Part shown: positions 14,787 to 57,238 of the stretch, in pieces | Layout: each line of letters opens with the position of its first letter | Numbering within the stretch: the stretch's first letter is position 1 | Origin: a virus | Length of the DNA stretch: 64,000 nt | Direction: 5' to 3' (one strand) | IMG/VR virus record: IMGVR_UViG_3300002835_000025 | Program-made: the position numbers and the translations under genes | Notes under the pieces: model-generated | Told to the model about the DNA's origin: nothing | What the model saw: only the letters and a program-made list of their open reading frames with translations | The model's database searches: none

Positions 14787-15749
14787 ATGGCCACACACTC
14801 AAGAGAACAACTTAAACAATACTGTCTTCGTGCATTAGGTGCTCCCGTACTTGAAATCAATGTAGAGGATATGCAATTAGAAGACCGTATAGATGAAGCA
14901 CTGGAATATTGGAGACAGTATCATCCAGATGGGGTTGAAAAACTCTATATGAAACACAAGATTTCAGCATCCATCATAACATTAACTACACAGACTGCTA
15001 CTTCTTTTACTGTAGGTGAAACTGTCACAGGATTAACTTCTGGTGCTACTGCCGAAGTTGCTACAGAAATCTTCGAATCATCTTCTGGTGCTAGTCTAAT
15101 GACCAAAATGGTTAAAGGTACATTTGTACCAGGTGAACACATTGTTGGTTCTAAATCGGGATACGATACGACTATAGTATCTTGTGTTCTTGGTGTATAT
15201 GATAACAAGTACATCGAAATTCCCGATTTGGTTTATGGCATAAGCAACATTCTACCAATCAGCAACAGTACAACATCGACCAATACCGTTTTCAATCTTC
15301 AGTATCAATTAAGATTAAATGACCTACATGACTTGACTTCAACATCAATGATTTACTATACAACTGCTATGAGTTATCTTGACTTGATGTCTTTTGTGTT
15401 GAACAGAGCACCATCAATCAGATTCAATCGTATGCAAGGTAGATTACATTTAGATCTAAATTGGGAAACTGATGTTACTTTAGGAACCTATGTTATTGCA
15501 GAATGCTACCGTGCATTGGATCCAGCAGAATCTACTCAAGTATGGAACGAGAGATGGTTGAAACATTATACTACTGCTTTGTTCAAAAAACAGTGGGGGC
15601 AGAATTTATCTAAATTTTCTAATATGCTTTTACCGGGTGGTGTTTCTATAGATGGTCAAGGCATATACGATACAGCAACACAAGAAATAAAAGATTTAGA
15701 AGATGAATTAGTAACATTGGCAGCACCACTCTCATGGTTTATGGGCTGA
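14787..15749 (+). CDS. gp13: Neck protein gp13
   Basis: LKQYCLRALGAPVLEINV and KKQWGQNLSKF..M.LPGGVSIDG; synteny. Confidence 0.92.
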   Translation: MATHSREQLKQYCLRALGAPVLEINVEDMQLEDRIDEALEYWRQYHPDGVEKLYMKHKISASIITLTTQTATSFTVGETVTGLTSGATAEVATEIFESSSGASLMTKMVKGTFVPGEHIVGSKSGYDTTIVSCVLGVYDNKYIEIPDLVYGISNILPISNSTTSTNTVFNLQYQLRLNDLHDLTSTSMIYYTTAMSYLDLMSFVLNRAPSIRFNRMQGRLHLDLNWETDVTLGTYVIAECYRALDPAESTQVWNERWLKHYTTALFKKQWGQNLSKFSNMLLPGGVSIDGQGIYDTATQEIKDLEDELVTLAAPLSWFMG

Positions 15750-15753
15750 TACT

Positions 15754-16407
15754 ATGCCACGGAATAAATATTTTACAATGGGTACTACTTCCGAACAGAA
15801 TGTTTGGGAGGATATTATCATCGAATCATTAAAGATTTATGGTCAGGATGTTAGATACATTCCAAGAACTTTGATTGCTAAAGATGAAATACTTGGTGAG
15901 GATAGATTATCACAATTCAATAGTCAATATCCAATAGAAGCATACTTTGAGAATATAGATAACTTTGAAGGTCAAGGGTCATTCATTCAAAAGTTTGGTT
16001 TGATGGTTGAACAATCTGCTACATTAGTAATTGCTAGAAAGCGTTGGGAACAACTTATTGGAACTTTTGGAACTACCATTCTTCCAAACAGACCTTGTGA
16101 AGGTGATTTGATTTACTTTCCACTATCAAAGGGATTGTTTGAAATAAAGTTTGTGCAACATCAGGATCCATTCTATCAAATTGGAAAACTTTACGTTTAC
16201 AAACTGCAAATCGAATTGTTCCAATATGCTAGTGAAAAGATCAATACTGGTATTGATGAGGTTGATGTGTTTGAAACTTTGAAATCGTTTGATGTAGACA
16301 TTACTGCCAATACTGATACTCAACAATCTTATGGCGATAATGATAAGTTTATAGATAAAGCAACTGATGTTATCTTCTCAGAAACAAATCCATTCGGTGA
16401 ACTATAA
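15754..16407 (+). CDS. gp14: Neck protein gp14
   Basis: ESLKIYGQDVRYIPR, RPCEGDLIYFP and PFYQIGK; synteny. Confidence 0.92.
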   Translation: MPRNKYFTMGTTSEQNVWEDIIIESLKIYGQDVRYIPRTLIAKDEILGEDRLSQFNSQYPIEAYFENIDNFEGQGSFIQKFGLMVEQSATLVIARKRWEQLIGTFGTTILPNRPCEGDLIYFPLSKGLFEIKFVQHQDPFYQIGKLYVYKLQIELFQYASEKINTGIDEVDVFETLKSFDVDITANTDTQQSYGDNDKFIDKATDVIFSETNPFGEL

Positions 16408-17138
16408 TGCTAAATAATCCTCCATATTACCATGGTATTATAAAGAAAGCAATTGTAGCATTCGGACGGATGTTTTCAGAAATTCAAATTGAGCGAATGG
16501 ACGAAAATGGTGACGTATTACAAACCATAAACGTACCTATTGCTTATGGTCCTAAAGAAAAATGGCTAGTTCGACTGGAACAAGATCCATCATTGGATAA
16601 CAATGTTAATACTATACTTCCTAGAATGTCGTTTGAAATAGTTGGATATTCTTATGATGCAACTAGAAAGTCCAACAAAATGACAAAGGTTGCTAGTTAT
16701 AACCAAACTACATCTGTATTAAAGACTCAATTCAGTCCTGTACCATATAATCTAGATATAGAATTAAACTTGTTAACCAAAACAACAGAAGATGCATTAG
16801 CAGTAGTTGAACAAATCTTGCCAGTATTCACTCCAGACTATACATTATCAATTAATGCTATTCCAGACTTGAATATTGTTAATGATGTTCCTATTATATT
16901 GAATGGAGTTAGTTTCCAGGATTCTTATGATGGCGATTTTCAATCAAGACGGGAAATAGTTTATACCTTTAGCTTTACCATGAAAGTTAATATATTTGGA
17001 TCAATAACATCATCAGGCGTTATCAAGAAAGCCAATGTCACTTTACCAAATCAACCATTGGATTACTTTGTTAAGTCTAATGTACCAGATACTTTTATAA
17101 TAGATACTTGGTCAAATAATACACCAACTGGATTCTAA
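16407..17138 (+). CDS. gp15: Tail sheath stabiliser/terminator gp15
   Basis: VPIAYGPKEKW, LPRMSFEI, PVPYN and EQILPVFTP. Confidence 0.92.
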   Translation: MLNNPPYYHGIIKKAIVAFGRMFSEIQIERMDENGDVLQTINVPIAYGPKEKWLVRLEQDPSLDNNVNTILPRMSFEIVGYSYDATRKSNKMTKVASYNQTTSVLKTQFSPVPYNLDIELNLLTKTTEDALAVVEQILPVFTPDYTLSINAIPDLNIVNDVPIILNGVSFQDSYDGDFQSRREIVYTFSFTMKVNIFGSITSSGVIKKANVTLPNQPLDYFVKSNVPDTFIIDTWSNNTPTGF

Positions 17139-17139
17139 T

Positions 17140-17555
17140 GTTGATACACGAGCTTGCTCGCAACCATGAACGCAGTGAATGGTTGAACAGATTAATACTA
17201 ATATTGACCTTTTAATTCGCTCACTGCGTTCACGAATGGTGGATTGCTCACTGCGTTCGCAACCACTTGACTACTAGATTATTTGGTATTTTTCCAGCCC
17301 TACATTGATGGTTTATATAAACTGCGCCGTGTAGGTCCGATGCAAAAACTGGAATTCTGATAAAGAAACATCCGACCTGCGAATAATATTGAACTTTATC
17401 GTCCATGTCTGTATTGCTAGTTTTGCTATAACGACAGACTTATTTGTAGATTGGCTACTACAGGGTACAGGAAAATTCCCGATCCTCATCTGGCAGGGGT
17501 AGGTTCCTGCTCATGCAACTGGTGTCCCATTGTCCAGTAATTATATAGGCTATGT
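17140..17555 (-). ncRNA. Candidate structured non-coding RNA / origin-primer transcript
   Basis: No ORF of 60 aa or more; GC-richer than flanks; many stems (GTCTGT/ACAGAC, TGTAG/CTACA, GCAGG/CCTGC, AGGTC/GACCT); a dedicated minus-strand promoter points into it. Confidence 0.5.
17149..17262. repeat. Hairpin cluster with three copies of GAACGCAGTGA (one on +, two on -)
   Basis: caaccat-GAACGCAGTGA-atggttg (17161-85); attcgc-TCACTGCGTTC-acgaat (17215-37); ttgc-TCACTGCGTTC-gcaa (17244-62); palindrome cgagcttgctcg (17149-60). Confidence 0.85.
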
Positions 17556-17559
17556 GATA

Positions 17560-17589
17560 ATTATATCTTATTTATACGAAAAAGTAAAC
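17560..17589 (-). promoter_or_regulatory. Nested early (GTTTAC-N18-TATAAT) and late (TATAAATA, 17569-76) promoters on the minus strand
   Basis: Reverse complement reads GTTTAC TTTTTCGTATAAATAAGA TATAAT. Confidence 0.75.
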
Positions 17590-17596
17590 ACTAATT

Positions 17597-19180
17597 ATGG
17601 CTTCTTTGACATACAATTCAAATCCAAACCTAAAATCTATTGGGGTTTCTGTCGATTATACGGAATACCAAGTCCAAGAATACATTAAGTGTAAAGCAGA
17701 TCCAATATATTTCATTAAGAATTATATAAAGATTATTACTCTAGACTATGGATTGGTACCATTTGAACTATTCGATTACCAAATAGATTTTATCAACACC
17801 ATACACAATAATAGTCGTTCCATCGGCATGTTTCCGAGACAACACGGAAAGACAACAACTGTAGCTGCTTACCTAGTTTGGTACTGCGTATTCAATGAAA
17901 GTAAAAATGTAGCTATGTTGGGTAACAAAGTTGCTGCTGCTCGTGAAGTTATGGCACGGTTTCAACTTATGTATGAAGAACTTCCAATATGGCTTCAACA
18001 GGGTGTTGTCGAATGGAACAAAGGTTCAGTAGCTCTAGAGAACAAAAGCAAAGCATTTATTGCTGCCACAACTGCATCAGGTATTCGAGGCAAATCTGTC
18101 AATCTTTTATATCTTGATGAACTTTCATCTGTTCCTGGTACAGTAGCTGAAGAATTCTTTGCTTCAACTTATCCTACAATCTCATCTGGTGAATCTTCAA
18201 AGGTTATTATAACATCTACTCCTATAGGTTTCAACCATTTTTGGAAAATGTGGGATGAAGCAGAACGAAATATAAATGGATTTATTCACAAACGAGTTGA
18301 ATATTGGGAACATCCTTTACATAATGAAGAATGGGCAGCCAAACAGAAACAACTTTTAGGTGAAATTAAGTACAACCAAGAAGTTTTGATGCACTTTCTG
18401 GGTTCATCTTATACACTTATTGGTAGTGATGTAATGTCCAAAATGAGACCTATTTCTTATATACACTCCAATAATGGATTAGACATTATTGAATATCCAA
18501 TACAATTCCATAGTTATGTTATGGTTGTGGATACATCAAAAGGTGTTGGTGGTGACTATTCAGCATTTACAGTTATAGATGTTACCCAACTTCCATATAA
18601 AGTTGTGGCAAAATATAGAGATAATAACATAAGTCCACTTCTATATCCAAATGTCATCTATAAAATTGCTAATGACTATAATGAAGCATTTGTACTTATG
18701 GAGATAAATAGTTCTGAACAAGTTAGTTATATTCTCCATGCAGATCTTGAATATGAAAATATACTATCAGTTGGAAGAAATTCCAAAGGTCAATGTATTT
18801 CCGGTGGCTTTGGTGGACAATCAAGATTAGGTGTCAATACTGATAAGAAAATAAAGAGAATAGGTTGTAATAATCTTAAAACACTAATAGAAGAAAATAA
18901 ACTATTAGTATATGATGCTGATATCATTGCAGAATTCTCGACGTTTATCGAATCGAAAGGTTCTTATGCAGCCGACGATGGATATCACGATGATCTTGTC
19001 ATGACATTGGTTCTTTTTGCCTGGTTAACTACAGATCCATATTTTACCGCACTTAATAACATTGATATGAGAAAGTCAATCTATGAAGATAGAATGAAAC
19101 TTATAGACGAACAGATGGTACCTACTGGTTGGTTGAATGATGGTAATGAATCAGATAAAGAAATCTTGATGAATTTCTGA
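17597..19180 (+). CDS. gp17: Terminase large subunit gp17
   Basis: Walker A PRQHGKTT; Walker B LLYLDE; STPIGFNHF; nuclease motifs VDTSKGVGGDYS and HDDLVM. Confidence 0.96.
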   Translation: MASLTYNSNPNLKSIGVSVDYTEYQVQEYIKCKADPIYFIKNYIKIITLDYGLVPFELFDYQIDFINTIHNNSRSIGMFPRQHGKTTTVAAYLVWYCVFNESKNVAMLGNKVAAAREVMARFQLMYEELPIWLQQGVVEWNKGSVALENKSKAFIAATTASGIRGKSVNLLYLDELSSVPGTVAEEFFASTYPTISSGESSKVIITSTPIGFNHFWKMWDEAERNINGFIHKRVEYWEHPLHNEEWAAKQKQLLGEIKYNQEVLMHFLGSSYTLIGSDVMSKMRPISYIHSNNGLDIIEYPIQFHSYVMVVDTSKGVGGDYSAFTVIDVTQLPYKVVAKYRDNNISPLLYPNVIYKIANDYNEAFVLMEINSSEQVSYILHADLEYENILSVGRNSKGQCISGGFGGQSRLGVNTDKKIKRIGCNNLKTLIEENKLLVYDADIIAEFSTFIESKGSYAADDGYHDDLVMTLVLFAWLTTDPYFTALNNIDMRKSIYEDRMKLIDEQMVPTGWLNDGNESDKEILMNF

Positions 19181-19184
19181 TTAG

Positions 19185-19192
19185 TATAAATA
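19185..19192 (+). promoter_or_regulatory. T4-type late promoter
   Basis: TATAAATA upstream of gp18. Confidence 0.75.
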
Positions 19193-19270
19193 AATACAGA
19201 ACCAACTTTTACAATGTGATCTACAAATTTATAATAGATAATTTTAACCTTATTCCTAACGGAGACACAC

Positions 19271-28876: not shown

Positions 28877-30360
28877 TGACAATTATTAAAGTCGAAAAAT
28901 ACAATGAAGCCTTTATTAGAATATTCTCTGACAGAGGAGTTGAACAGGAACTTTCAGAGTTTTTTAAATTTGCTGTTCCTGGAGCAAAGTACATGCCTAA
29001 ATTTAAAGCCAAAATATGGGATGGATATTGCAGACTTTATAATACTCAAACAAAAACCCTATATGCTGGACTAATAAATTATGTAAAAGAATTTGCAGAA
29101 AGAAATGATTATGAATTACAAATTGATGACGGAATTACTTACGACAATGGAATAAAGCTAAATCATGTAGAAGACTTTGCTAAATTATTGAAACTTCATT
29201 CAAAGAATAAGCCAATAGAATTACGCGATTATCAATTCAATGCAATACATAAGGCATTGAATGAATGCAGAACATTATTGATAAGTCCTACTTCAAGTGG
29301 AAAATCAGCAATCATTTACACTCTAATAAGATGGTTCACTGCAAAGAATTTAAAGTGTCTAATAATCGTTCCTAATACGTCATTAGTAGAACAATTATAC
29401 TCAGATTTTGAGGATTATTCTTCTCATAATGGTTGGTCAATTGAGAACAACTGTCAAAAATTATATTCAGGGCTGTCTAAGGATTTCAAAAAAAACGTAC
29501 TATTAACAACATGGCAATCAACATTTAAATTGTCCAAAGAATGGTGTAATCAATTTGACGTAGTAATTTCAGATGAAGCACATTTAGCAAAGGCTACAAG
29601 TCAAACTTCAATGTTTGAAAAAATGACAGATGTAAAGTATAGAATTGGAACTACTGGTACAATAGACAATACACAAATTTCACAACTTCAATTAGAAGGA
29701 ATACTTGGTCCAGTTCACCGAGTAATTACTACTAAAGAATTAATGGATTCAAACCGAGTAGTCAATCTTTCTATAAAATGTTTGTTGTTAAAATACCCTG
29801 AAGAAATTAGAAAGATTATGTGCTCTGCTAAATACCAAGCAGAAATGGACTATATTATTTCAAATGAAAAACGTAATAAATTCATAGTTAATTTAGCATT
29901 ACAACAGTCAGGAAATACTCTAATACTTTTCCAATTTGTTGAGAAACATGGAAAAGTATTACAAAAAATGATTAATGAAAAAATAGACAACAATAGAAAA
30001 GTTTATTATATAAGTGGTGAAACTGCTACAGAAGAAAGAGAACTAATAAGACATACTGCTGAAAAAGAATCTAATGCTATTATTCTTGCAAGTTTTGGAA
30101 CAATGTCTACTGGTGTAAATATGCCATCAATAGAAAATATTATCTTCTCTAGTCCTTCAAAATCAAAAATTAGAAATTTACAATCCATTGGTAGAGGACT
30201 AAGATTAAAAGAAGGAAAGAATAGTTGTAATCTGTATGACATTGCTGATAACTTTTCTTATAAATCAAAATCTAATCATACTTTAGGTCATTTAGCAGAA
30301 AGAATTAAGACTTATACAAATGAAGAATTTGATATGAAAATTATTAATATTAATCTTTAA
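28876..30360 (+). CDS. uvsW: SF2 helicase UvsW
   Basis: WDG..RL, LRDYQ, SPTSSGKS, DEAH and LQSIGRGLR. Confidence 0.95.
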   Translation: MTIIKVEKYNEAFIRIFSDRGVEQELSEFFKFAVPGAKYMPKFKAKIWDGYCRLYNTQTKTLYAGLINYVKEFAERNDYELQIDDGITYDNGIKLNHVEDFAKLLKLHSKNKPIELRDYQFNAIHKALNECRTLLISPTSSGKSAIIYTLIRWFTAKNLKCLIIVPNTSLVEQLYSDFEDYSSHNGWSIENNCQKLYSGLSKDFKKNVLLTTWQSTFKLSKEWCNQFDVVISDEAHLAKATSQTSMFEKMTDVKYRIGTTGTIDNTQISQLQLEGILGPVHRVITTKELMDSNRVVNLSIKCLLLKYPEEIRKIMCSAKYQAEMDYIISNEKRNKFIVNLALQQSGNTLILFQFVEKHGKVLQKMINEKIDNNRKVYYISGETATEERELIRHTAEKESNAIILASFGTMSTGVNMPSIENIIFSSPSKSKIRNLQSIGRGLRLKEGKNSCNLYDIADNFSYKSKSNHTLGHLAERIKTYTNEEFDMKIININL

Positions 30361-30422
30361 TTAGTATTGATAAAACCAGTTAATAGAATTATACATCATT
30401 TCCGGTCAAAAGTAAACATTAT
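30359..30422 (-). repeat. Minus-strand early promoter with conserved leader, copy 1
   Basis: Near-identical to 57176-57238; GTTTAC-N18-TATAAT on - (30388-30417). Confidence 0.75.
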
Positions 30423-34006: not shown

Positions 34007-34014
34007 AAATAAAT

Positions 34015-39860: not shown

Positions 39861-39861
39861 T

Positions 39862-41645: not shown

Positions 41646-42632
41646 ATGATGATTAACGAATTTTATACAAATGCAATCCAATATGGTAATAAAATACTTG
41701 TCAGATCTATTAGAGATGGATTGCCACAAAAGCAGAAAATCGATTTTTACCCTACCTTATATACCACATCAGGAAAATCTTCAGAATCTTCTTCATTCAA
41801 GTCTTTACATGGAGTAGAATTATACGAAATAAAACCGGGTACCATAAATGATTGCAAAGATTTCATAAAAACTTACGAAAATGCGATGCCTGTGTATGGA
41901 CAAACAAACTATGCATATCAATATATTGAAGAAAATTACAAAACCGATATAAAGTTTGATTCTGACTTATTAAAAATCATTGCTATCGATATAGAAACTG
42001 CAAATGAAGAATCTGGTTTTCCTCATCCAAAATACGCTAATGAAGAAATTCTACTAATTACTGTCAGAGATCTTAAAACTAAATCTACAAAAATATTTGG
42101 ATCTAGACCTTATGAAGGAAAACATAAAGCAGATTTTGTCCTTTGTAAAGACGAAAATCAATTACTTCAGCAATTTGTGACTCATTGGCAACAAAGAATC
42201 CCTGACATTATTACGGGTTGGAATATTGACAACTTTGATATTCCGTACATTATTAATAGACTACTAAGAACTATAGGAGAAGATTATGTTAAAAAACTTT
42301 CTCCATGGAATATAGTCAATGAACGTTCTAAAAAGGTTAATAACGTAGAACAACAGACTTATGAAATACTCGGTGTGTCATCTTTAGACTATATTGAACT
42401 CTATAAGAAATATTCTAAAAAAAACCAGGAGTCATACAGACTAGACCATATAGCATTTGTAGAACTTGGTGAAAGAAAACTGGATCATAGCCAATGGAAT
42501 ACTTTCAAGGAATTTTACTCTGGTGAATATGACACTCATAAAATTAGGCCAGAGTATGAAAATTCGGATACAAAGTCTTATAGAAGAACACAGATAAAAT
42601 TAGAGTTAATTAGACGCGGACTAACAGTTTAA
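41646..42632 (+). CDS. gp43: DNA polymerase gp43, N-terminal fragment (N domain, Exo I and II)
   Basis: [19 protein letters not shown] and [15 protein letters not shown]; stops before Exo III. Confidence 0.92.
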
Positions 42633-43470
42633 ATTGTTTACAGTTTGTGCCATGCCATCTATTATAATTAAGAGGATCAAAACTGCAGTTGCAATATTCA
42701 CAAAGTATTGATTCTTTCTTTTTCATAGGTGGCAATTCTATTTCAGATTTGAATACATTTAAAGAACTGTCAAATATTGTCCAAGTTTTAGAAACTAGTC
42801 TTGTATTTCCTAGTGTTAAATTATATATTTTCTGTGGGCTTATTTTTGTTAATTGATGAAATTCTGATATAGTCATATCAAATACATCTTTAGTTATTAC
42901 ATTTTTAAATTTGAAAATGTCTTTTTTAAACCAAGGTTTACTTTGCTTTGCAATTTTACCAAAATTAATATTTTTACATTCAATAGAACATAATTTCTGG
43001 CTAATATTATGTGTAATTATTTCTTTATTACATACGGAACAATTTATAGTGATATACTTTCTGTTCGATAGCGCTTTCAATGATCTATTCTGTTTAATTA
43101 TTTCTTTAGTACACGATCTAGAACAACAATTACTGCATCCGCTAAATTCTTTATAACAATATTTGCAAATTTTCATTGGCTTAAGTTTTTTAACTCCAGT
43201 ATTTCCATCTCCGCCATCAGTCTTATTTAGGAGTATACCTGTCCCAATGTCTTTTCGCCCATGCCATCTTATCATTCTTCTTTCTATTGCTAATGCTCCA
43301 ACTTCAGATAAATTCGTTTCTAGGAATATTATCTTTGTTCTATCCTTTGGCACAGATATTCCTTTATGAATATCATAGGCTCTAGTATTCTTACCTTTTC
43401 CAATGTAATATGGTGTTCCGTCTGACTTTCTAATATATGCATACACGTAATATATAAGATCGCTGGTCAT
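42610..43470 (-). mobile_element. Free-standing GIY-YIG-like homing endonuclease inserted antisense within gp43
   Basis: [15 protein letters not shown]...RA, conserved E, N.TDGGDG, multiple CxxC fingers and C-terminal CxxC..RWH..NC. Confidence 0.85.
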
Positions 43471-43561
43471 GATAGTTCCTTGAATTGTCTTAAGAATGAT
43501 TAGTGCTACTGGAGCCTAGGAACTCGCGAGTAGCTTTTTTAGTTTGTACAATCTATTTATA
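43471..43561 (-). promoter_or_regulatory. Late promoter and structured leader of the endonuclease
   Basis: TATAAATA on - (43554-61); GCTACT..AGTAGC stem; AAGGA RBS. Confidence 0.65.
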
Positions 43562-43573
43562 ATATCAATAGAT

Positions 43574-43603
43574 GTTTACTTTTTGTTGTTATTGTGATAT
43601 TAT
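43574..43603 (+). promoter_or_regulatory. Early promoter for the gp43 C-terminal fragment
   Basis: GTTTAC-N18-TATTAT with TG extension; AGGAG RBS follows. Confidence 0.7.
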
Positions 43604-43627
43604 ATACATTTATTATAGGAGAACATT

Positions 43628-45307
43628 ATGTTTAGTGATATATCAGATAAAGATTTATTAGATGAATATTATAAATTAGATAAAGAAATAAAGCAAGAAT
43701 CATGGACTACATATACTGATTACAATTATCATGACGTATTGCTTATTGATAAATTGGATGAGCAATTAAAGTTTATCGAGTTACAACTCACAATGGCATA
43801 TACTGCCAAGATTAATTATCAAGAAGCATTTAGTCCGGTTAGACTATGGGACTCTACAATCTATCACTATCTTATTAATAAGAACATTATTATTCCTAAC
43901 ATGGACAGAAATGTTAAAGGAGAATTAATGGGTGCCTATGTAAAGACTCCTATTACTGGCATTCATAAATGGATCGCGTCATTCGATTTGGCATCATTAT
44001 ATCCTCATCTAATAATGCAATACAATATCAGCCCAGAAACATTAACAACTACGAAATTGTCATTCACTATTGATAATTTATTAGACAAAATTGAACTTCC
44101 AAAAGTTGATTATGCAATTACTGCTAATGGTTGGTGCTATTCTAAAGATAAGCGCGGATTCCTACCAGAGTTGATGGACACTATGTATGCAAATCGTTCT
44201 ATGCATAAGAAACAAATGTTAAAGCATGAACAGCAATACGAGAGTGATAAGAACAATAAGGAACTATCAAAAGAAATTTCAAGACTTAATAACTTGCAAC
44301 TAGCTCTAAAGGAAACACTAAACAGTGCATACGGAGCTATTGGAATGCCATACTTCCGATATTATGATTTGAGAATGGCAGAATCCATAACATCATCTGG
44401 ACAGTTCTCGATAAAATGGATAGCAAACAGAATTAACAAATATTTGAATTCAGCTTTGAAAACAAATAACACCGATTATATTATTGCTTCGGATACCGAT
44501 TCTGTGTACGTGTCATTGGAAACTTTGGTCGAAACGACTCAAGGTGAAAAATCGACAGAAGATAAAATCAAATTCATGGATTCATTCTGCGGCAAAGTCT
44601 TAACTCCGTTAATAGAAAAATCATATATCGAGTTAGCAGAGTACATGAATGCCTATGAACAAAAGATGCAAATGAAACGAGAAGTACTTGCTGATAAAGG
44701 TTTGTGGACGGCTAAGAAAAGATATGCATTAAGAGTTCATAACTCTGAAGGTGTTCAGTATGATAAACCAAAAATGAAAATTATGGGCATTGAGATTGTA
44801 AAGTCATCGACTCCAACTGCCATAAGAGAAAAATTGAAGTCAACTATTGATATTATTTTTAATGACACTAATTTGGACCTCATAAGATTCATTGAAGACA
44901 CTAGACAGGAATTTAAAACATTAGCAGTAGAAGATATTGCTATTCCAAGTACAGTTAATGGAATGATAAAATTTTCTAATGACAAAACTATTTATTCTAA
45001 AGGCTGTCCGATTTATGTCAGAGGAGGTTTATTATACAATAAAGTTGTTAAAGATATGAAACTTGATCAGAAGTATCCTTTAATAGGCGCAGGAGACAAA
45101 TTAAAATATGTTTATTTGAAACTCCCAAATACTATTAAAGAAGATGTTATTGGATTCCCTACTGAATTACCAATGGAATTCGGATTACATAAGTATATTG
45201 ACTACAACACTCAGTTTGAAAAAGTGTTCTTGAATCCATTAGAAAAGATTGTCGATGCTATTGGTTGGAATTTAAAAGAGCAATCGACTTTAGATGCATT
45301 CTTCTAA
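43628..45307 (+). CDS. gp43: DNA polymerase gp43, C-terminal fragment (Exo III plus polymerase)
   Basis: YNYHD (Exo III), SFDLASLYP, K..LNSAYG, ASDTDS, KKRY and clamp-binding TLDAFF. Confidence 0.95.
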   Translation: MFSDISDKDLLDEYYKLDKEIKQESWTTYTDYNYHDVLLIDKLDEQLKFIELQLTMAYTAKINYQEAFSPVRLWDSTIYHYLINKNIIIPNMDRNVKGELMGAYVKTPITGIHKWIASFDLASLYPHLIMQYNISPETLTTTKLSFTIDNLLDKIELPKVDYAITANGWCYSKDKRGFLPELMDTMYANRSMHKKQMLKHEQQYESDKNNKELSKEISRLNNLQLALKETLNSAYGAIGMPYFRYYDLRMAESITSSGQFSIKWIANRINKYLNSALKTNNTDYIIASDTDSVYVSLETLVETTQGEKSTEDKIKFMDSFCGKVLTPLIEKSYIELAEYMNAYEQKMQMKREVLADKGLWTAKKRYALRVHNSEGVQYDKPKMKIMGIEIVKSSTPTAIREKLKSTIDIIFNDTNLDLIRFIEDTRQEFKTLAVEDIAIPSTVNGMIKFSNDKTIYSKGCPIYVRGGLLYNKVVKDMKLDQKYPLIGAGDKLKYVYLKLPNTIKEDVIGFPTELPMEFGLHKYIDYNTQFEKVFLNPLEKIVDAIGWNLKEQSTLDAFF

Positions 45308-45308
45308 T

Positions 45309-45338
45309 GTGTACATTATAATCGATATAGTGTATAAT
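45309..45338 (+). promoter_or_regulatory. Early promoter
   Basis: GTGTAC-N18-TATAAT. Confidence 0.7.
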
Positions 45339-45367
45339 ATTATTTTATTATTTAAAAAGGAAATATT

Positions 45368-46231
45368 ATGTCAGAATTATTAGCAAAAATTAAAAAGACT
45401 TGTACCATTAAAGATTCTTCTGTATTGAGTGCATCAAAATATTTTAATAAAAAGGATATGATTCAAACTCAGATTCCTGCATTAAATGTTGCATTATCTG
45501 GAGAATTGGATGGAGGTTTTGTTCCTGGTCTGACATTATGGTGTGGTCCAAGTAAACATTTCAAATCGATGTTTTCATTAATCATGGCTAAAGCTTACAT
45601 GGACAAATATCCTGAAGCAATTATGATTTTTTATGATTGCGAATTTGGAACTCCAACTGCGTATTTTAGTTCTCTTAATATTGATACAAATAGAATTCTT
45701 CATGTTCCTGTAATGAATATGGAAGAATTCAAATTTGATGTCATTAAACAATTAGAAGGACTTGATAGAGGAGATAGGGTAATTTTTATCATTGACTCTC
45801 TAGGTAATATGTCTTCCAAAAAAGAAATGGAAGATGCTATTGATGGAAAATCAGTACAAGATATGTCTAGAGCTAAACAAATGAAATCAATTTTTAGAAT
45901 GATTACGCCATATCTTAATAGATTAGACATTCCAATGGTAGCAGTTAACCACATCTATATGTGTGGAACAGAAGAAATGGAAGTTATTTCGGATAATGGT
46001 GCAATTAGTCTAAAAAATATCACGCCGGGAATGTTAGTGGAAACTACCAATGGACTTCAACCCGTCACTAATGTATTTAAGTATGAGGACGCGTATGTGT
46101 CTGATATTGAAATGGAAGACGGCACAATACTATCATTTACACAAGGACATAGATTCATGGTAAATGGAGAATGGGTCTTTGTAGAGGATCTTCAAGAAGG
46201 AATGGAACTTGATATAAAACCCATCTCGTAA
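45368..46231 (+). CDS. uvsX: UvsX recombinase N-extein fused to split-intein N half
   Basis: GPSKHFKS, IIDSLGN, DMSRAK and VNHIYM, followed by intein C1 at 45962. Confidence 0.92.
   Translation: MSELLAKIKKTCTIKDSSVLSASKYFNKKDMIQTQIPALNVALSGELDGGFVPGLTLWCGPSKHFKSMFSLIMAKAYMDKYPEAIMIFYDCEFGTPTAYFSSLNIDTNRILHVPVMNMEEFKFDVIKQLEGLDRGDRVIFIIDSLGNMSSKKEMEDAIDGKSVQDMSRAKQMKSIFRMITPYLNRLDIPMVAVNHIYMCGTEEMEVISDNGAISLKNITPGMLVETTNGLQPVTNVFKYEDAYVSDIEMEDGTILSFTQGHRFMVNGEWVFVEDLQEGMELDIKPIS
45962..46228 (+). mobile_element. Split intein N-fragment (89 aa)
   Basis: Block A CGTEEMEV; block B TQGHRF; W..VEDL.EG. Confidence 0.88.
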
Positions 46232-46272
46232 TTGCAATAAATAATTCATATATACATTTTAAAGGGTTTTAT

Positions 46273-47073
46273 ATGAATTATTTGAAACATTACGAATTAT
46301 TAATTACTAGAGCAAAATCTAGAAGTAAAATTTTAGAGTATATTGAGAAACATCATATAGTTCCAAAGTGTTTAGGTGGAAATAATGATATTGACAATAT
46401 TGCTGAACTAACACCAGAGGAACATTATTTTGCCCATCAACTACTAGCAAAAATATATCCAGATAATTGCGGGTTAATTAGTGCATGTAAATTGATGGGA
46501 GGAAGTATTTCGGGAAAAAGAAGTAATAATAAAATCTATGGGTGGATAAGAAGAAAATCTAATATATTGATGGGACAGTCAATTAGGAAACTTCATATTG
46601 ATAAAAGAGATATGAAGTCTATATCATTAGGATTTGAAAATTATATTGATATGTCTAAGTCTATATGGGATTTATTCATAACCCATAAATTACATTATAC
46701 TTCTATAGAAGAAAAATTTGGGGTTAGTCGGCATTTTATAAAAAGATCTTTAGAAGTATATGCTAAAGATAATGACTTATTAGATGAGTTAGCTCAAGGT
46801 TATTATGATCTTAAGTCAAGCAGTCAAAAACTAGGCAGATCTAAATTTACTGAAGATCAAGAAAGCAATAGAATAACAGCATTAAAAAATATTGACTATG
46901 CCGCTAGATCATTAAAAACCGGTTCTAGAAAAGGATCATTAAATCCAACATTTGGTAAAACTTGGTCTCATATTAAAATGATGTGCCCATATTGTAATAA
47001 AGAAGTCGGCGGAAAGCGTTGGCATTTTGATAACTGCAGGAGTAAAAATGAAAATCAAATCAATAAAATTTAA
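46273..47073 (+). mobile_element. Free-standing HNH homing endonuclease between the split-intein halves
   Basis: EKHHIVPKCLGG.N...N...LT.EEH..AH.LL; NPTFGK; CPYC..RWH..NC. Confidence 0.88.
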
Positions 47074-47152
47074 TACACGTAAGGCAGATGTTTACGACAT
47101 TGAAACTCCTACACACGATTATATATTAAAAAACGGAATAATTTCTCATAAT
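47048..47152 (+). mobile_element. Split intein C-fragment (35 aa)
   Basis: MKIKSIK...VYDIET..HDY...NGIISHN followed by Thr+1. Confidence 0.9.
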
Positions 47153-47656
47153 ACACAGGAGCTTTACAGCAAACCTGTAGTTTCTGGTGGAACTGGTGTT
47201 TACTTATCTGCTGATAATATTTTTATTCTTGGAAGACAACAAGAAAAAGAAGGAACAGAAGTCATTGGTTATAACTTTATCATCAATGTAGAAAAATCAA
47301 GATATGTAAGAGAAAAATCAAAAATTCCAATTAGTGTTCTATTTGAAGGTGGTGTTTCTAAATGGTCAGGATTATTAGAAATGGCATTAGAATCTGGTCA
47401 TGTCATTAAGCCAAATAATGGTTGGTATTCTAGAGTAGATAAAATTACTGGTGAGCTTGAAGATAAACGATATAGATTAAAAGATACTATCAATAAAGAA
47501 TTCTGGCTTCCTATATTAGCAAAAAAGGATTTCCAACAATGGATAAAAGAATCTTATAAATTGACAGAATCAGAAATGCTATCTGATTCAGTAATTGAAT
47601 CAGAATTATCAAAGGTTGAATTAGAGGATTTGGAAAAAATTTCTGAATTAGTTTAA
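47048..47656 (+). CDS. uvsX: Split-intein C half fused to UvsX C-extein
   Basis: AGGAG RBS with ATG 47048; extein TQELYSKPVVSGGTG..SAD and NVEKSRYVREKS. Confidence 0.9.
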   Translation: MKIKSIKFNTRKADVYDIETPTHDYILKNGIISHNTQELYSKPVVSGGTGVYLSADNIFILGRQQEKEGTEVIGYNFIINVEKSRYVREKSKIPISVLFEGGVSKWSGLLEMALESGHVIKPNNGWYSRVDKITGELEDKRYRLKDTINKEFWLPILAKKDFQQWIKESYKLTESEMLSDSVIESELSKVELEDLEKISELV

Positions 47657-57170: not shown

Positions 57171-57175
57171 TAATA

Positions 57176-57238
57176 AATTAGTATTGATAAGACCAGTTAA
57201 TTTATTATACATCAAACCCAGTCAAAAGTAAACATTAT
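57176..57238 (-). repeat. Minus-strand early promoter with conserved leader, copy 2
   Basis: Near-identical to 30359-30422; GTTTAC-N18-TATAAT on - (57204-57233). Confidence 0.75.

Follow-up and report, generated by a model that had tools for sequence, protein, structure and literature searches.

The window analysed here is a 64-kb stretch of DNA (64,000 nt) from an uncultured T4-like myovirus, IMG/VR record IMGVR_UViG_3300002835_000025, in which nearly all genes lie on the plus strand. The gene order around the region of interest is gp13 (14787-15749), gp14 (15754-16407), gp15, a gap of 458 bp (17139-17596), TerL/gp17, gp18, gp19 and gp20, and the element considered in this report, a conserved fold of about 260 nt, lies in that gap. 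The left neighbour, gp15 (16407-17138, plus strand), codes for the tail sheath stabiliser (PF16724, E 3.9e-70; phrog_227), and the right neighbour (17597-19180, plus strand) codes for an intact large terminase, gp17 or TerL, with the domains Terminase_6N and Terminase_6C (PF03237, PF17289; phrog_5989). The nearest cultured phages are cyanomyoviruses, with TerL identities of just 47-49%.

The element recurs in three other environmental phage contigs from IMG/VR, which were aligned with the window: L083, L084 and L082, identical to L002, L003 and L004, respectively. It was also found in one JGI contig, L086 (Ga0214168_1000016, range 42554-47226 of 68.9 kb), whose compared part starts inside the RNA element and is identical to L084; L086 is therefore a duplicate, although the contig runs on for 42 kb beyond on the RNA side. 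The covariation set consists of four sequences from three independent lineages, and about 17 further gp15 clusters of the clade, present in the protein database, lie outside the alignment.

Analysis of the gap indicated that stops occur throughout all three plus frames, and that its short minus-strand open reading frames (ORFs) are not kept in the relatives because indels of 1 nt and 4 nt break them, in agreement with a preliminary description of the window that had seen no sizeable ORF between gp15 and gp17. An 8-codon ORF at 17308 was considered as a leader peptide and rejected, being frame-shifted in L084 (alignment, by eye).

Alignment of the four sequences revealed that the gap is made up of three parts, a variable hairpin spacer (17139-17295), a conserved core (17296-17553) and a 43-bp linker (17554-17596). 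Conservation is confined to 17296-17596, the first 157 bp of the gap being lineage-specific. The covariance model R1 recognises the core with 320-329 bits in the window, L083, L084 and L082, and its match extends to 17571. Within the core, the 94 nt from 17296 to 17389, which comprise a CCCUACA edge, one P1 strand, P2 and the P3 hairpin, form a sequence-invariant domain that is 94.5-100% identical to the relatives, compared with 70-94% for the flanking coding DNA. The 3' domain (17390-17553, 164 nt) is 71-76% identical to L084 and L082 and retains every helix. L083 differs from the window at four positions of the element, two of which make up a compensated U-A to C-G pair in P5.

The fold derived with RNAalifold on the plus strand consists of helices P1-P8. 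P1 is a 13-bp long-range closing helix of the plus strand (17308-17320 with 17541-17553) that encloses P2-P8, and P3 (17330-17381) is a hairpin of 12-13 bp with a 26-nt loop, in which 17330-17342 pairs with 17369-17381. The helices P4 (17390-17405), P5 (17407-17439), P6 (17462-17486), P7 (17492-17511) and P8 (17518-17538) make up a covarying domain, 17390-17538, that carries all double-sided changes, and all five of them are compensated. P8 reads ACUGG/CCAGU, GUCAG/CUGAC and GUUGG/CCAAC across the three lineages, and the P7 sequences are GGCAGG/CCUGCU for the window and ACAUCG/CGAUGU for L084. Computed on an alignment fitted to the covariance model, the plus-strand model has 60 pairs, with 99.6% of cells paired and 13 double-sided changes, and the minus-strand model has 56 pairs, with 99.1% of cells paired and 12 double-sided changes. 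None of 500 shuffles equalled the observed double-change count, and slid partners gave 0-2 such changes (0-1 for the plus model). The stems that the preliminary description had placed in 17330-17510 are thus real, P3-P8 being retained in the relatives through compensatory changes, and the covariation check it had proposed on homologous gp15-terL regions turned out positive, with 12-13 double-sided pairs.

P1 itself holds 3-4 G.U pairs and for this reason can form on the plus strand alone. Its substitutions include one change from U-A to U.G but no double-sided change, so that P1 is not proven; in L084 and L082, each of its two strands has a single additional A, in mirrored positions. Taken as a single sequence, the core has an ordinary fold energy (z about -1), and the case for structure is therefore a comparative one. 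With no more than three independent lineages to compare, we regard the covariation statistics as indicative and not conclusive. Judged by compensatory substitutions in four sequences of three lineages, 17296-17553 is a conserved structured RNA, and we infer that the fold is that of a functional RNA molecule.

The spacer (17139-17295) is identical in L083 and is replaced in L084, L082 and L086 by an unrelated 75-bp spacer with one 7-bp hairpin. In the window it contains three hairpins, a small one (17149-17160), a long imperfect one whose arms lie at 17167-17197 and 17202-17232, and a third at 17238-17266. The hairpin cluster that had been noticed beside the stems is thereby located at 17149-17266, where the fold z is -3.5 on both strands. 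The 11-mer GAACGCAGTGA occurs three times in the spacer (orientations +, - and -) against 0.3 expected; by our own reading it caps three hairpins of differing stems, and the motif is confined to the window and L083. The copies look like a local amplification of a hairpin motif. The spacer could possibly serve as the 3' end or terminator region of a minus-strand RNA, or as a 3' stabiliser of the gp15 mRNA. The linker (17554-17596) is AT-rich, and only TATA..TTATTTATA is conserved there.

On the minus strand, the linker harbors a putative early-type promoter, TGTTTACTTTT-N14-TATAAT, at 17560-17590, which is a perfect copy of the motif; its hexamers, TTTACT-17-TATAAT, lie at 17588-17560. The start predicted for it, at about 17553, is separated from the conserved block's edge by no more than about 2 nt. 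This 31-nt motif is found six times in the window with up to two mismatches (0.10 expected), a number that none of 100 shuffles reached, and the five exact copies of its 10-mer core are all intergenic. Copies on the plus strand are located at 34014 before the tRNA cluster (six tRNAs at 34.3-35.0 kb according to ARAGORN), at 39861 before 40205, and at 43573 before the DNA polymerase gene. Given these locations, the motif looks like a working early promoter class of the phage. A T4-type late box, TATAAATA, lies on the minus strand at 17569-17576, nested in the spacer of the early promoter. Twelve such boxes occur in the window, six of them intergenic, and the five intergenic ones other than that of the gap each face a downstream ORF. 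The late box is exact in L084 and L082, and this box together with the -10 hexamer is what the poorly conserved linker keeps. Overlapping early and late promoters have been described for the MotA-less T4-like phages RB49, S-PM2 and Syn9 (PMC2984593). The nested early and late promoters directed leftward into the gap, as initially proposed, are thus present as motifs and above chance.

Related arrangements were observed elsewhere in the window. Before gp18 (19181-19235), a TATAAATA box at 19185 is followed 16 nt later by TTTACA-16-TATAAT (19208-19235), a late and early pair on the plus strand. Two near-identical 60-bp cassettes, at 30360-30420 and 57175-57235, lie just past the stops of plus-strand genes coding for a gp41-like helicase and a phrog_451 protein. 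The plus-strand reading of both is TTAGTATTGATAA.ACCAGTTAAT...AAAAGTAAACATTAT; on the minus strand, each has a perfect TGTTTACTTTT-N14-TATAAT aimed into the 3' end of the gene, with no credible minus-strand ORF downstream. The only sizeable minus-strand gene of the window (42610-43470; phrog_15526, function unknown) comes with a minus-strand TATAAATA of its own (43554-43561), which stands in back-to-back orientation to the plus-strand DNA polymerase promoter.

We asked how the gap relates to gp16, the gene for the small terminase (TerS). Gp16 is carried by 53 related loci, mostly immediately upstream of terL, and in S-SM2 it lies directly after gp15. Neither tblastn with the S-SM2 gp16 nor a hidden Markov model (HMM) made from 34 related-locus gp16 sequences found gp16 in the 64-kb window, in line with the preliminary description. 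Both searches were also empty for L002-L006, with L010 recovered as the positive control; the 53-kb record from which L005 comes is without gp16, and the control record of L010 has it. A hidden or broken gp16 in the gap (TerS, PF11053, marine gp16) was rejected, given the stops in the plus frames and the lack of similarity.

In the sister phages L005 and L006 (TerL identity 64-67%), the stop codon of gp15 and the start codon of terL overlap (TTAATGG), leaving no gap between the genes, and both phages are without gp16 at the junction and without the RNA element. The gp16 slot was therefore already vacant in this wider clade when the RNA arrived, and the 458-bp element is a later insertion. By this comparison, the insertion between gp15 and terL is limited to one clade. 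The statement that gp16 normally precedes gp17 holds for the more distant relatives, with their 53 loci, but not for the nearest sisters. The pentamer CTAAT is found at both ends of the element in the window, a candidate target-site duplication that is not seen in L084.

The terL gene next to the insertion shows a peculiarity of its own in two of the relatives. In L003 (2345-5329), and at the same place in L002, equivalent to 17851/17852 of the window, terL is interrupted behind the P-loop motif FPRQHGK. Its first part closes with a piece of about 32 aa whose first residue is Cys, the second part begins with a piece ending in ...SHN followed by TTTVAAY and gives a weak Intein_splicing match, and a separate 334-aa ORF with a DUF559/Vsr-type endonuclease domain lies between the two halves. 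This arrangement resembles a split intein accompanied by a free-standing homing endonuclease, that is, a fractured gene. Between the window and L083, identity is only 87% over the first 255 nt of terL and 95% beyond them, a difference that co-conversion during homing would be expected to produce.

The locus is also a mosaic. The gp15 of the window is closest to that of L084 (94% at the nucleotide level) and just 88% identical to that of L083, while the intergenic block (99-100%) and the 3' part of terL (95%) are closest to L083. This pattern speaks for recombination, with breakpoints at the two borders of the intergenic block.

A scan with Rfam 15 (4227 models) gave no family at the gathering threshold in the gap, and in the window five tRNAs alone passed. 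At E values up to 10, the region 17100-17650 gave three noise matches (mir-19, pan and a snoRNA), all far below thresholds. Neither a group I or II intron nor a mobile-intron remnant was matched at E up to 10; gp15 and terL are both complete, and the TerL N-terminus aligns with the sister phages from residue 1. The covariance model found no further copy in the window, in other T4-like terL loci or in five whole viral records, and no further copy came from gapped patterns run on IMG/VR (three), JGI metagenomes (one) and GTDB genomes (two). Two GTDB and two extra IMG/VR pattern matches were dismissed as chance, since they had no model score. No blastn match was obtained among cultured phages. 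On these searches the element is a new, narrowly distributed phage RNA family, the structured RNA candidates of PMC10690425 having been compared by description only. The earlier suggestion of a phage non-coding RNA outside the known families is supported by the lack of an Rfam match together with the conserved fold and its 12-13 compensatory pairs.

Which strand carries the functional RNA was examined separately. At the centre of P4 the minus strand forms a G.U pair, the plus-strand counterpart being A.C, and the inner part of P6 goes through G-C, G.U and A-U on the minus strand, where a 3-bp extension of P6 covaries. In L084 and L082, UUCG and GAAA loops appear on the minus strand only (alignments, by eye). 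A perfect promoter copy is directed into the element, and the conserved linker boxes are the minus-strand ones. The alifold energies are near-equal on the two strands and give no preference, and the pair counts of the two strand models tie, so that the strand is not settled by covariation. Because covariation fits the plus strand equally and the plus strand is transcribed for terL, a minus-strand RNA is likely only. Overall, we give the minus strand slightly more weight than everything else taken together; the plus strand is a tentative second choice, and the small remainder goes to a role of both strands or to one at the DNA level. The minus-strand RNA put forward in the preliminary description thus gained the support of the promoter, but not a covariation signal of its own.

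The element combines a conserved fold, promoter motifs, an inserted position and no catalogued homologue. The explanation we prefer, which we hold to be about evenly balanced against all others combined, is that the gp15-terL junction received an independent minus-strand non-coding RNA gene by insertion. Its features as a gene of its own are the promoter motif and, following on the minus strand, the stable hairpins; a U-tract terminator was not found in the gap. The early-class promoter of the phage at 17590-17560, with its nested late box, would start transcription leftward, and the overlapping layout of the two predicts expression through much of the infection. The folded RNA, of about 260 nt, would begin near 17553, and the variable stable hairpins at 17266-17149 would probably form or protect its 3' end. 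The length of about 400 nt first proposed would apply only to an RNA running on through the variable hairpins, the conserved RNA being about 260 nt long. The invariant domain (17296-17389), with its hairpin of 12-13 bp and 26-nt loop, may be a binding surface for a protein or other partner, and the five-hairpin domain would be free to drift in sequence as long as pairing is retained. A minus-strand RNA would be fully complementary to the gp15-terL intercistronic late mRNA, so that pairing with this leader is an unavoidable possibility; such pairing could alter mRNA processing or terL expression.

A bolder version of this minus-strand RNA gene is improbable in our judgement. The element would then be the first representative of a novel phage RNA class: a folded RNA of about 260 nt, made early and late from an overlapping promoter and in the direction opposite to the structural operon, whose invariant domain binds a specific partner, possibly as a cofactor or regulator of the terminase where the TerS gene left the operon, or as a decoy against host defence. 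In either version the element offers a compact and well-delimited case, with promoter, folded body and 3' hairpins within 458 bp, that is directly testable; its distribution is very narrow, being limited to three lineages.

Several observations weigh against a minus-strand RNA gene. The statistics are weak, coming from three independent lineages and from alignments fitted to the model, and the plus-strand fold is equally supported (60 pairs, 99.6% paired, 13 double changes). The G.U pairs on which P1, P2 and the outer P3 depend are available on the plus strand but not on the minus strand, and it is likewise only on the plus strand that P1 and P7 stay paired after their one-sided changes. Every neighbouring gene lies on the plus strand, and no plus-strand late box occurs between 14002 and 19185, so that the message for terL has to be transcribed through the element. 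The -35 hexamer of the early promoter has degenerated to TTGTTA in L084 and L082. A canonical terminator is absent from both strands of the gap. Finally, no trans target was detected in the window, where the best complementarity was 12 nt (E 0.8).

A cis-acting leader of terL on the plus strand is the most serious competitor, possible but clearly less probable than the minus-strand RNA gene. The fold would then be an intercistronic one between gp15 and terL, ending 44 nt before the terL start codon, and it would set the translation, processing or stability of terL in place of the gp15-terL translational coupling of the sister phages; it might be riboswitch-like or protein-binding. Such a leader has the orientation of all neighbouring genes and is transcribed for terL expression, given that the gap is without a plus-strand late box. 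It accounts for the pairs and double changes of the plus-strand model, for P1, P2 and the outer P3, which form on the plus strand only, for the excess of G.U over A.C cells (26 vs 11) and for the mirrored single-A indel on both strands of P1, and the P3 loop is A-rich on this strand. Structured RNAs before large-terminase genes have, moreover, been predicted in IMG/VR (PMC10690425). However, P1-P3 are invariant and hence unproven, P4 has a central A.C mismatch, and the inner P6 passes through A.C. No conserved pairing that would hide the terL start region and no terminator were found in the gap, and no known riboswitch class matches. The linker, moreover, conserves exactly the minus-strand promoter boxes.

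An insert acting or decaying at the DNA level, either as single-stranded DNA hairpins or as the remnant of a mobile cassette of promoter and stem-loops, with no RNA function of its own, is quite improbable. It would be consistent with the position of the element as an insertion at a gene junction, with the amplified hairpin motifs of the spacer and with G.U-type and A.C-type mismatches being about equally common among the variable pairs. The intergenic block is 99-100% identical between the window and L083 against about 87% for both flanks, which suggests a recent exchange as a cassette. Decay, however, would not retain 13 compensated pairs and a near-invariant block of 94 nt where terL DNA differs by 18-30%, and the insert is accompanied by no transposase, endonuclease or clear target duplication.

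A replication-origin primer, as envisaged in the preliminary description, is very unlikely. The leftward RNA would stay hybridised to the DNA, as at T4 oriF and oriG, or fold like ColE1 RNA II; this would suit promoter motifs, read from the sequence alone, that fire into non-coding DNA (17560-17590, minus strand), and the two further matched minus-strand promoter cassettes of the window that have no gene to drive. The cumulative GC skew, however, shows no turn near 17.3 kb, and the DNA past the promoter has the highest G+C content of its surroundings (0.40-0.41 in 17100-17500 vs about 0.30-0.35 around it), with no AT-rich unwinding element. The element is also missing from the sister clade, and compensatory changes point to an RNA fold rather than to an RNA-DNA hybrid.

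A packaging element, in the form of a pac-like site or of a terminase RNA cofactor making up for a TerS that was relocated or lost, is scarcely credible: it would lie directly before terL in a window that, like the 53-kb contig of L005, is without the gp16 that 53 related loci carry, but the sisters L005 and L006 lack gp16 at the junction and the element alike, so that the RNA is not a TerS replacement; compensatory change, which is not expected of a double-stranded DNA recognition site, favours single-strand folding over a pac site; and no similarity to phi29 pRNA was found. The gp16 slot can stand empty without a replacement, which corrects the account of a compensating element that the preliminary description had offered as a speculation.

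Comparison with known systems places the putative minus-strand RNA gene as follows. The pRNA of phi29 (RF00044) is likewise a folded RNA encoded by a phage and is tied to the packaging machinery. It differs in that RF00044 has no match here, the motor is of the T4 type (TerL and gp20 portal) and the sister phages do without the element. To our knowledge, the T4-type packaging motor does not use RNA. At the R-loop origins oriF and oriG of T4, and for ColE1 RNA II, a promoter likewise faces non-coding DNA, and RNA II is folded into several stems; by contrast, the element described here has no AT-rich unwinding element and no skew signal and is found in one small clade. The stable RNAs C and D of T4, GOLLD and ROOL are phage-borne structured RNAs whose function is not known. 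They differ from the element in lying beside tRNA genes or in being several hundred nucleotides long, and they are modelled in Rfam, where none of them matches here. We know of few non-coding RNAs described in T4-like phages, T4 RNAs C and D being the other familiar case besides CfrI of the cyanophage S-PM2.

The IMG/VR predictions of PMC10690425 also concern candidate structured RNAs that were obtained by comparative analysis and are situated directly before large-terminase (terL-type) genes of uncultured phages; compared here by description only, they lie in front of a terminase of the psiM2_ORF9 type and are taken to be regulators on the sense strand. The promoters of RB49, S-PM2 and Syn9 (PMC2984593) are likewise of the sigma-70 type with a nested TATAAATA late box. 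In those phages the arrangement drives protein genes, whereas here the predicted promoter faces a non-coding element opposite to the gene strand. CfrI of the T4-like cyanophage S-PM2, an RNA of about 225 nt, was reported in 2010 as the first antisense RNA in the T4-like group (PMC2984593). Like CfrI, the RNA proposed here would be a non-coding RNA in the range of about 200-260 nt that runs against the surrounding genes and has no known function. CfrI overlaps coding genes (psbA and a homing endonuclease gene), while the RNA proposed here would have an intergenic insert of its own and a conserved fold of multiple helices.

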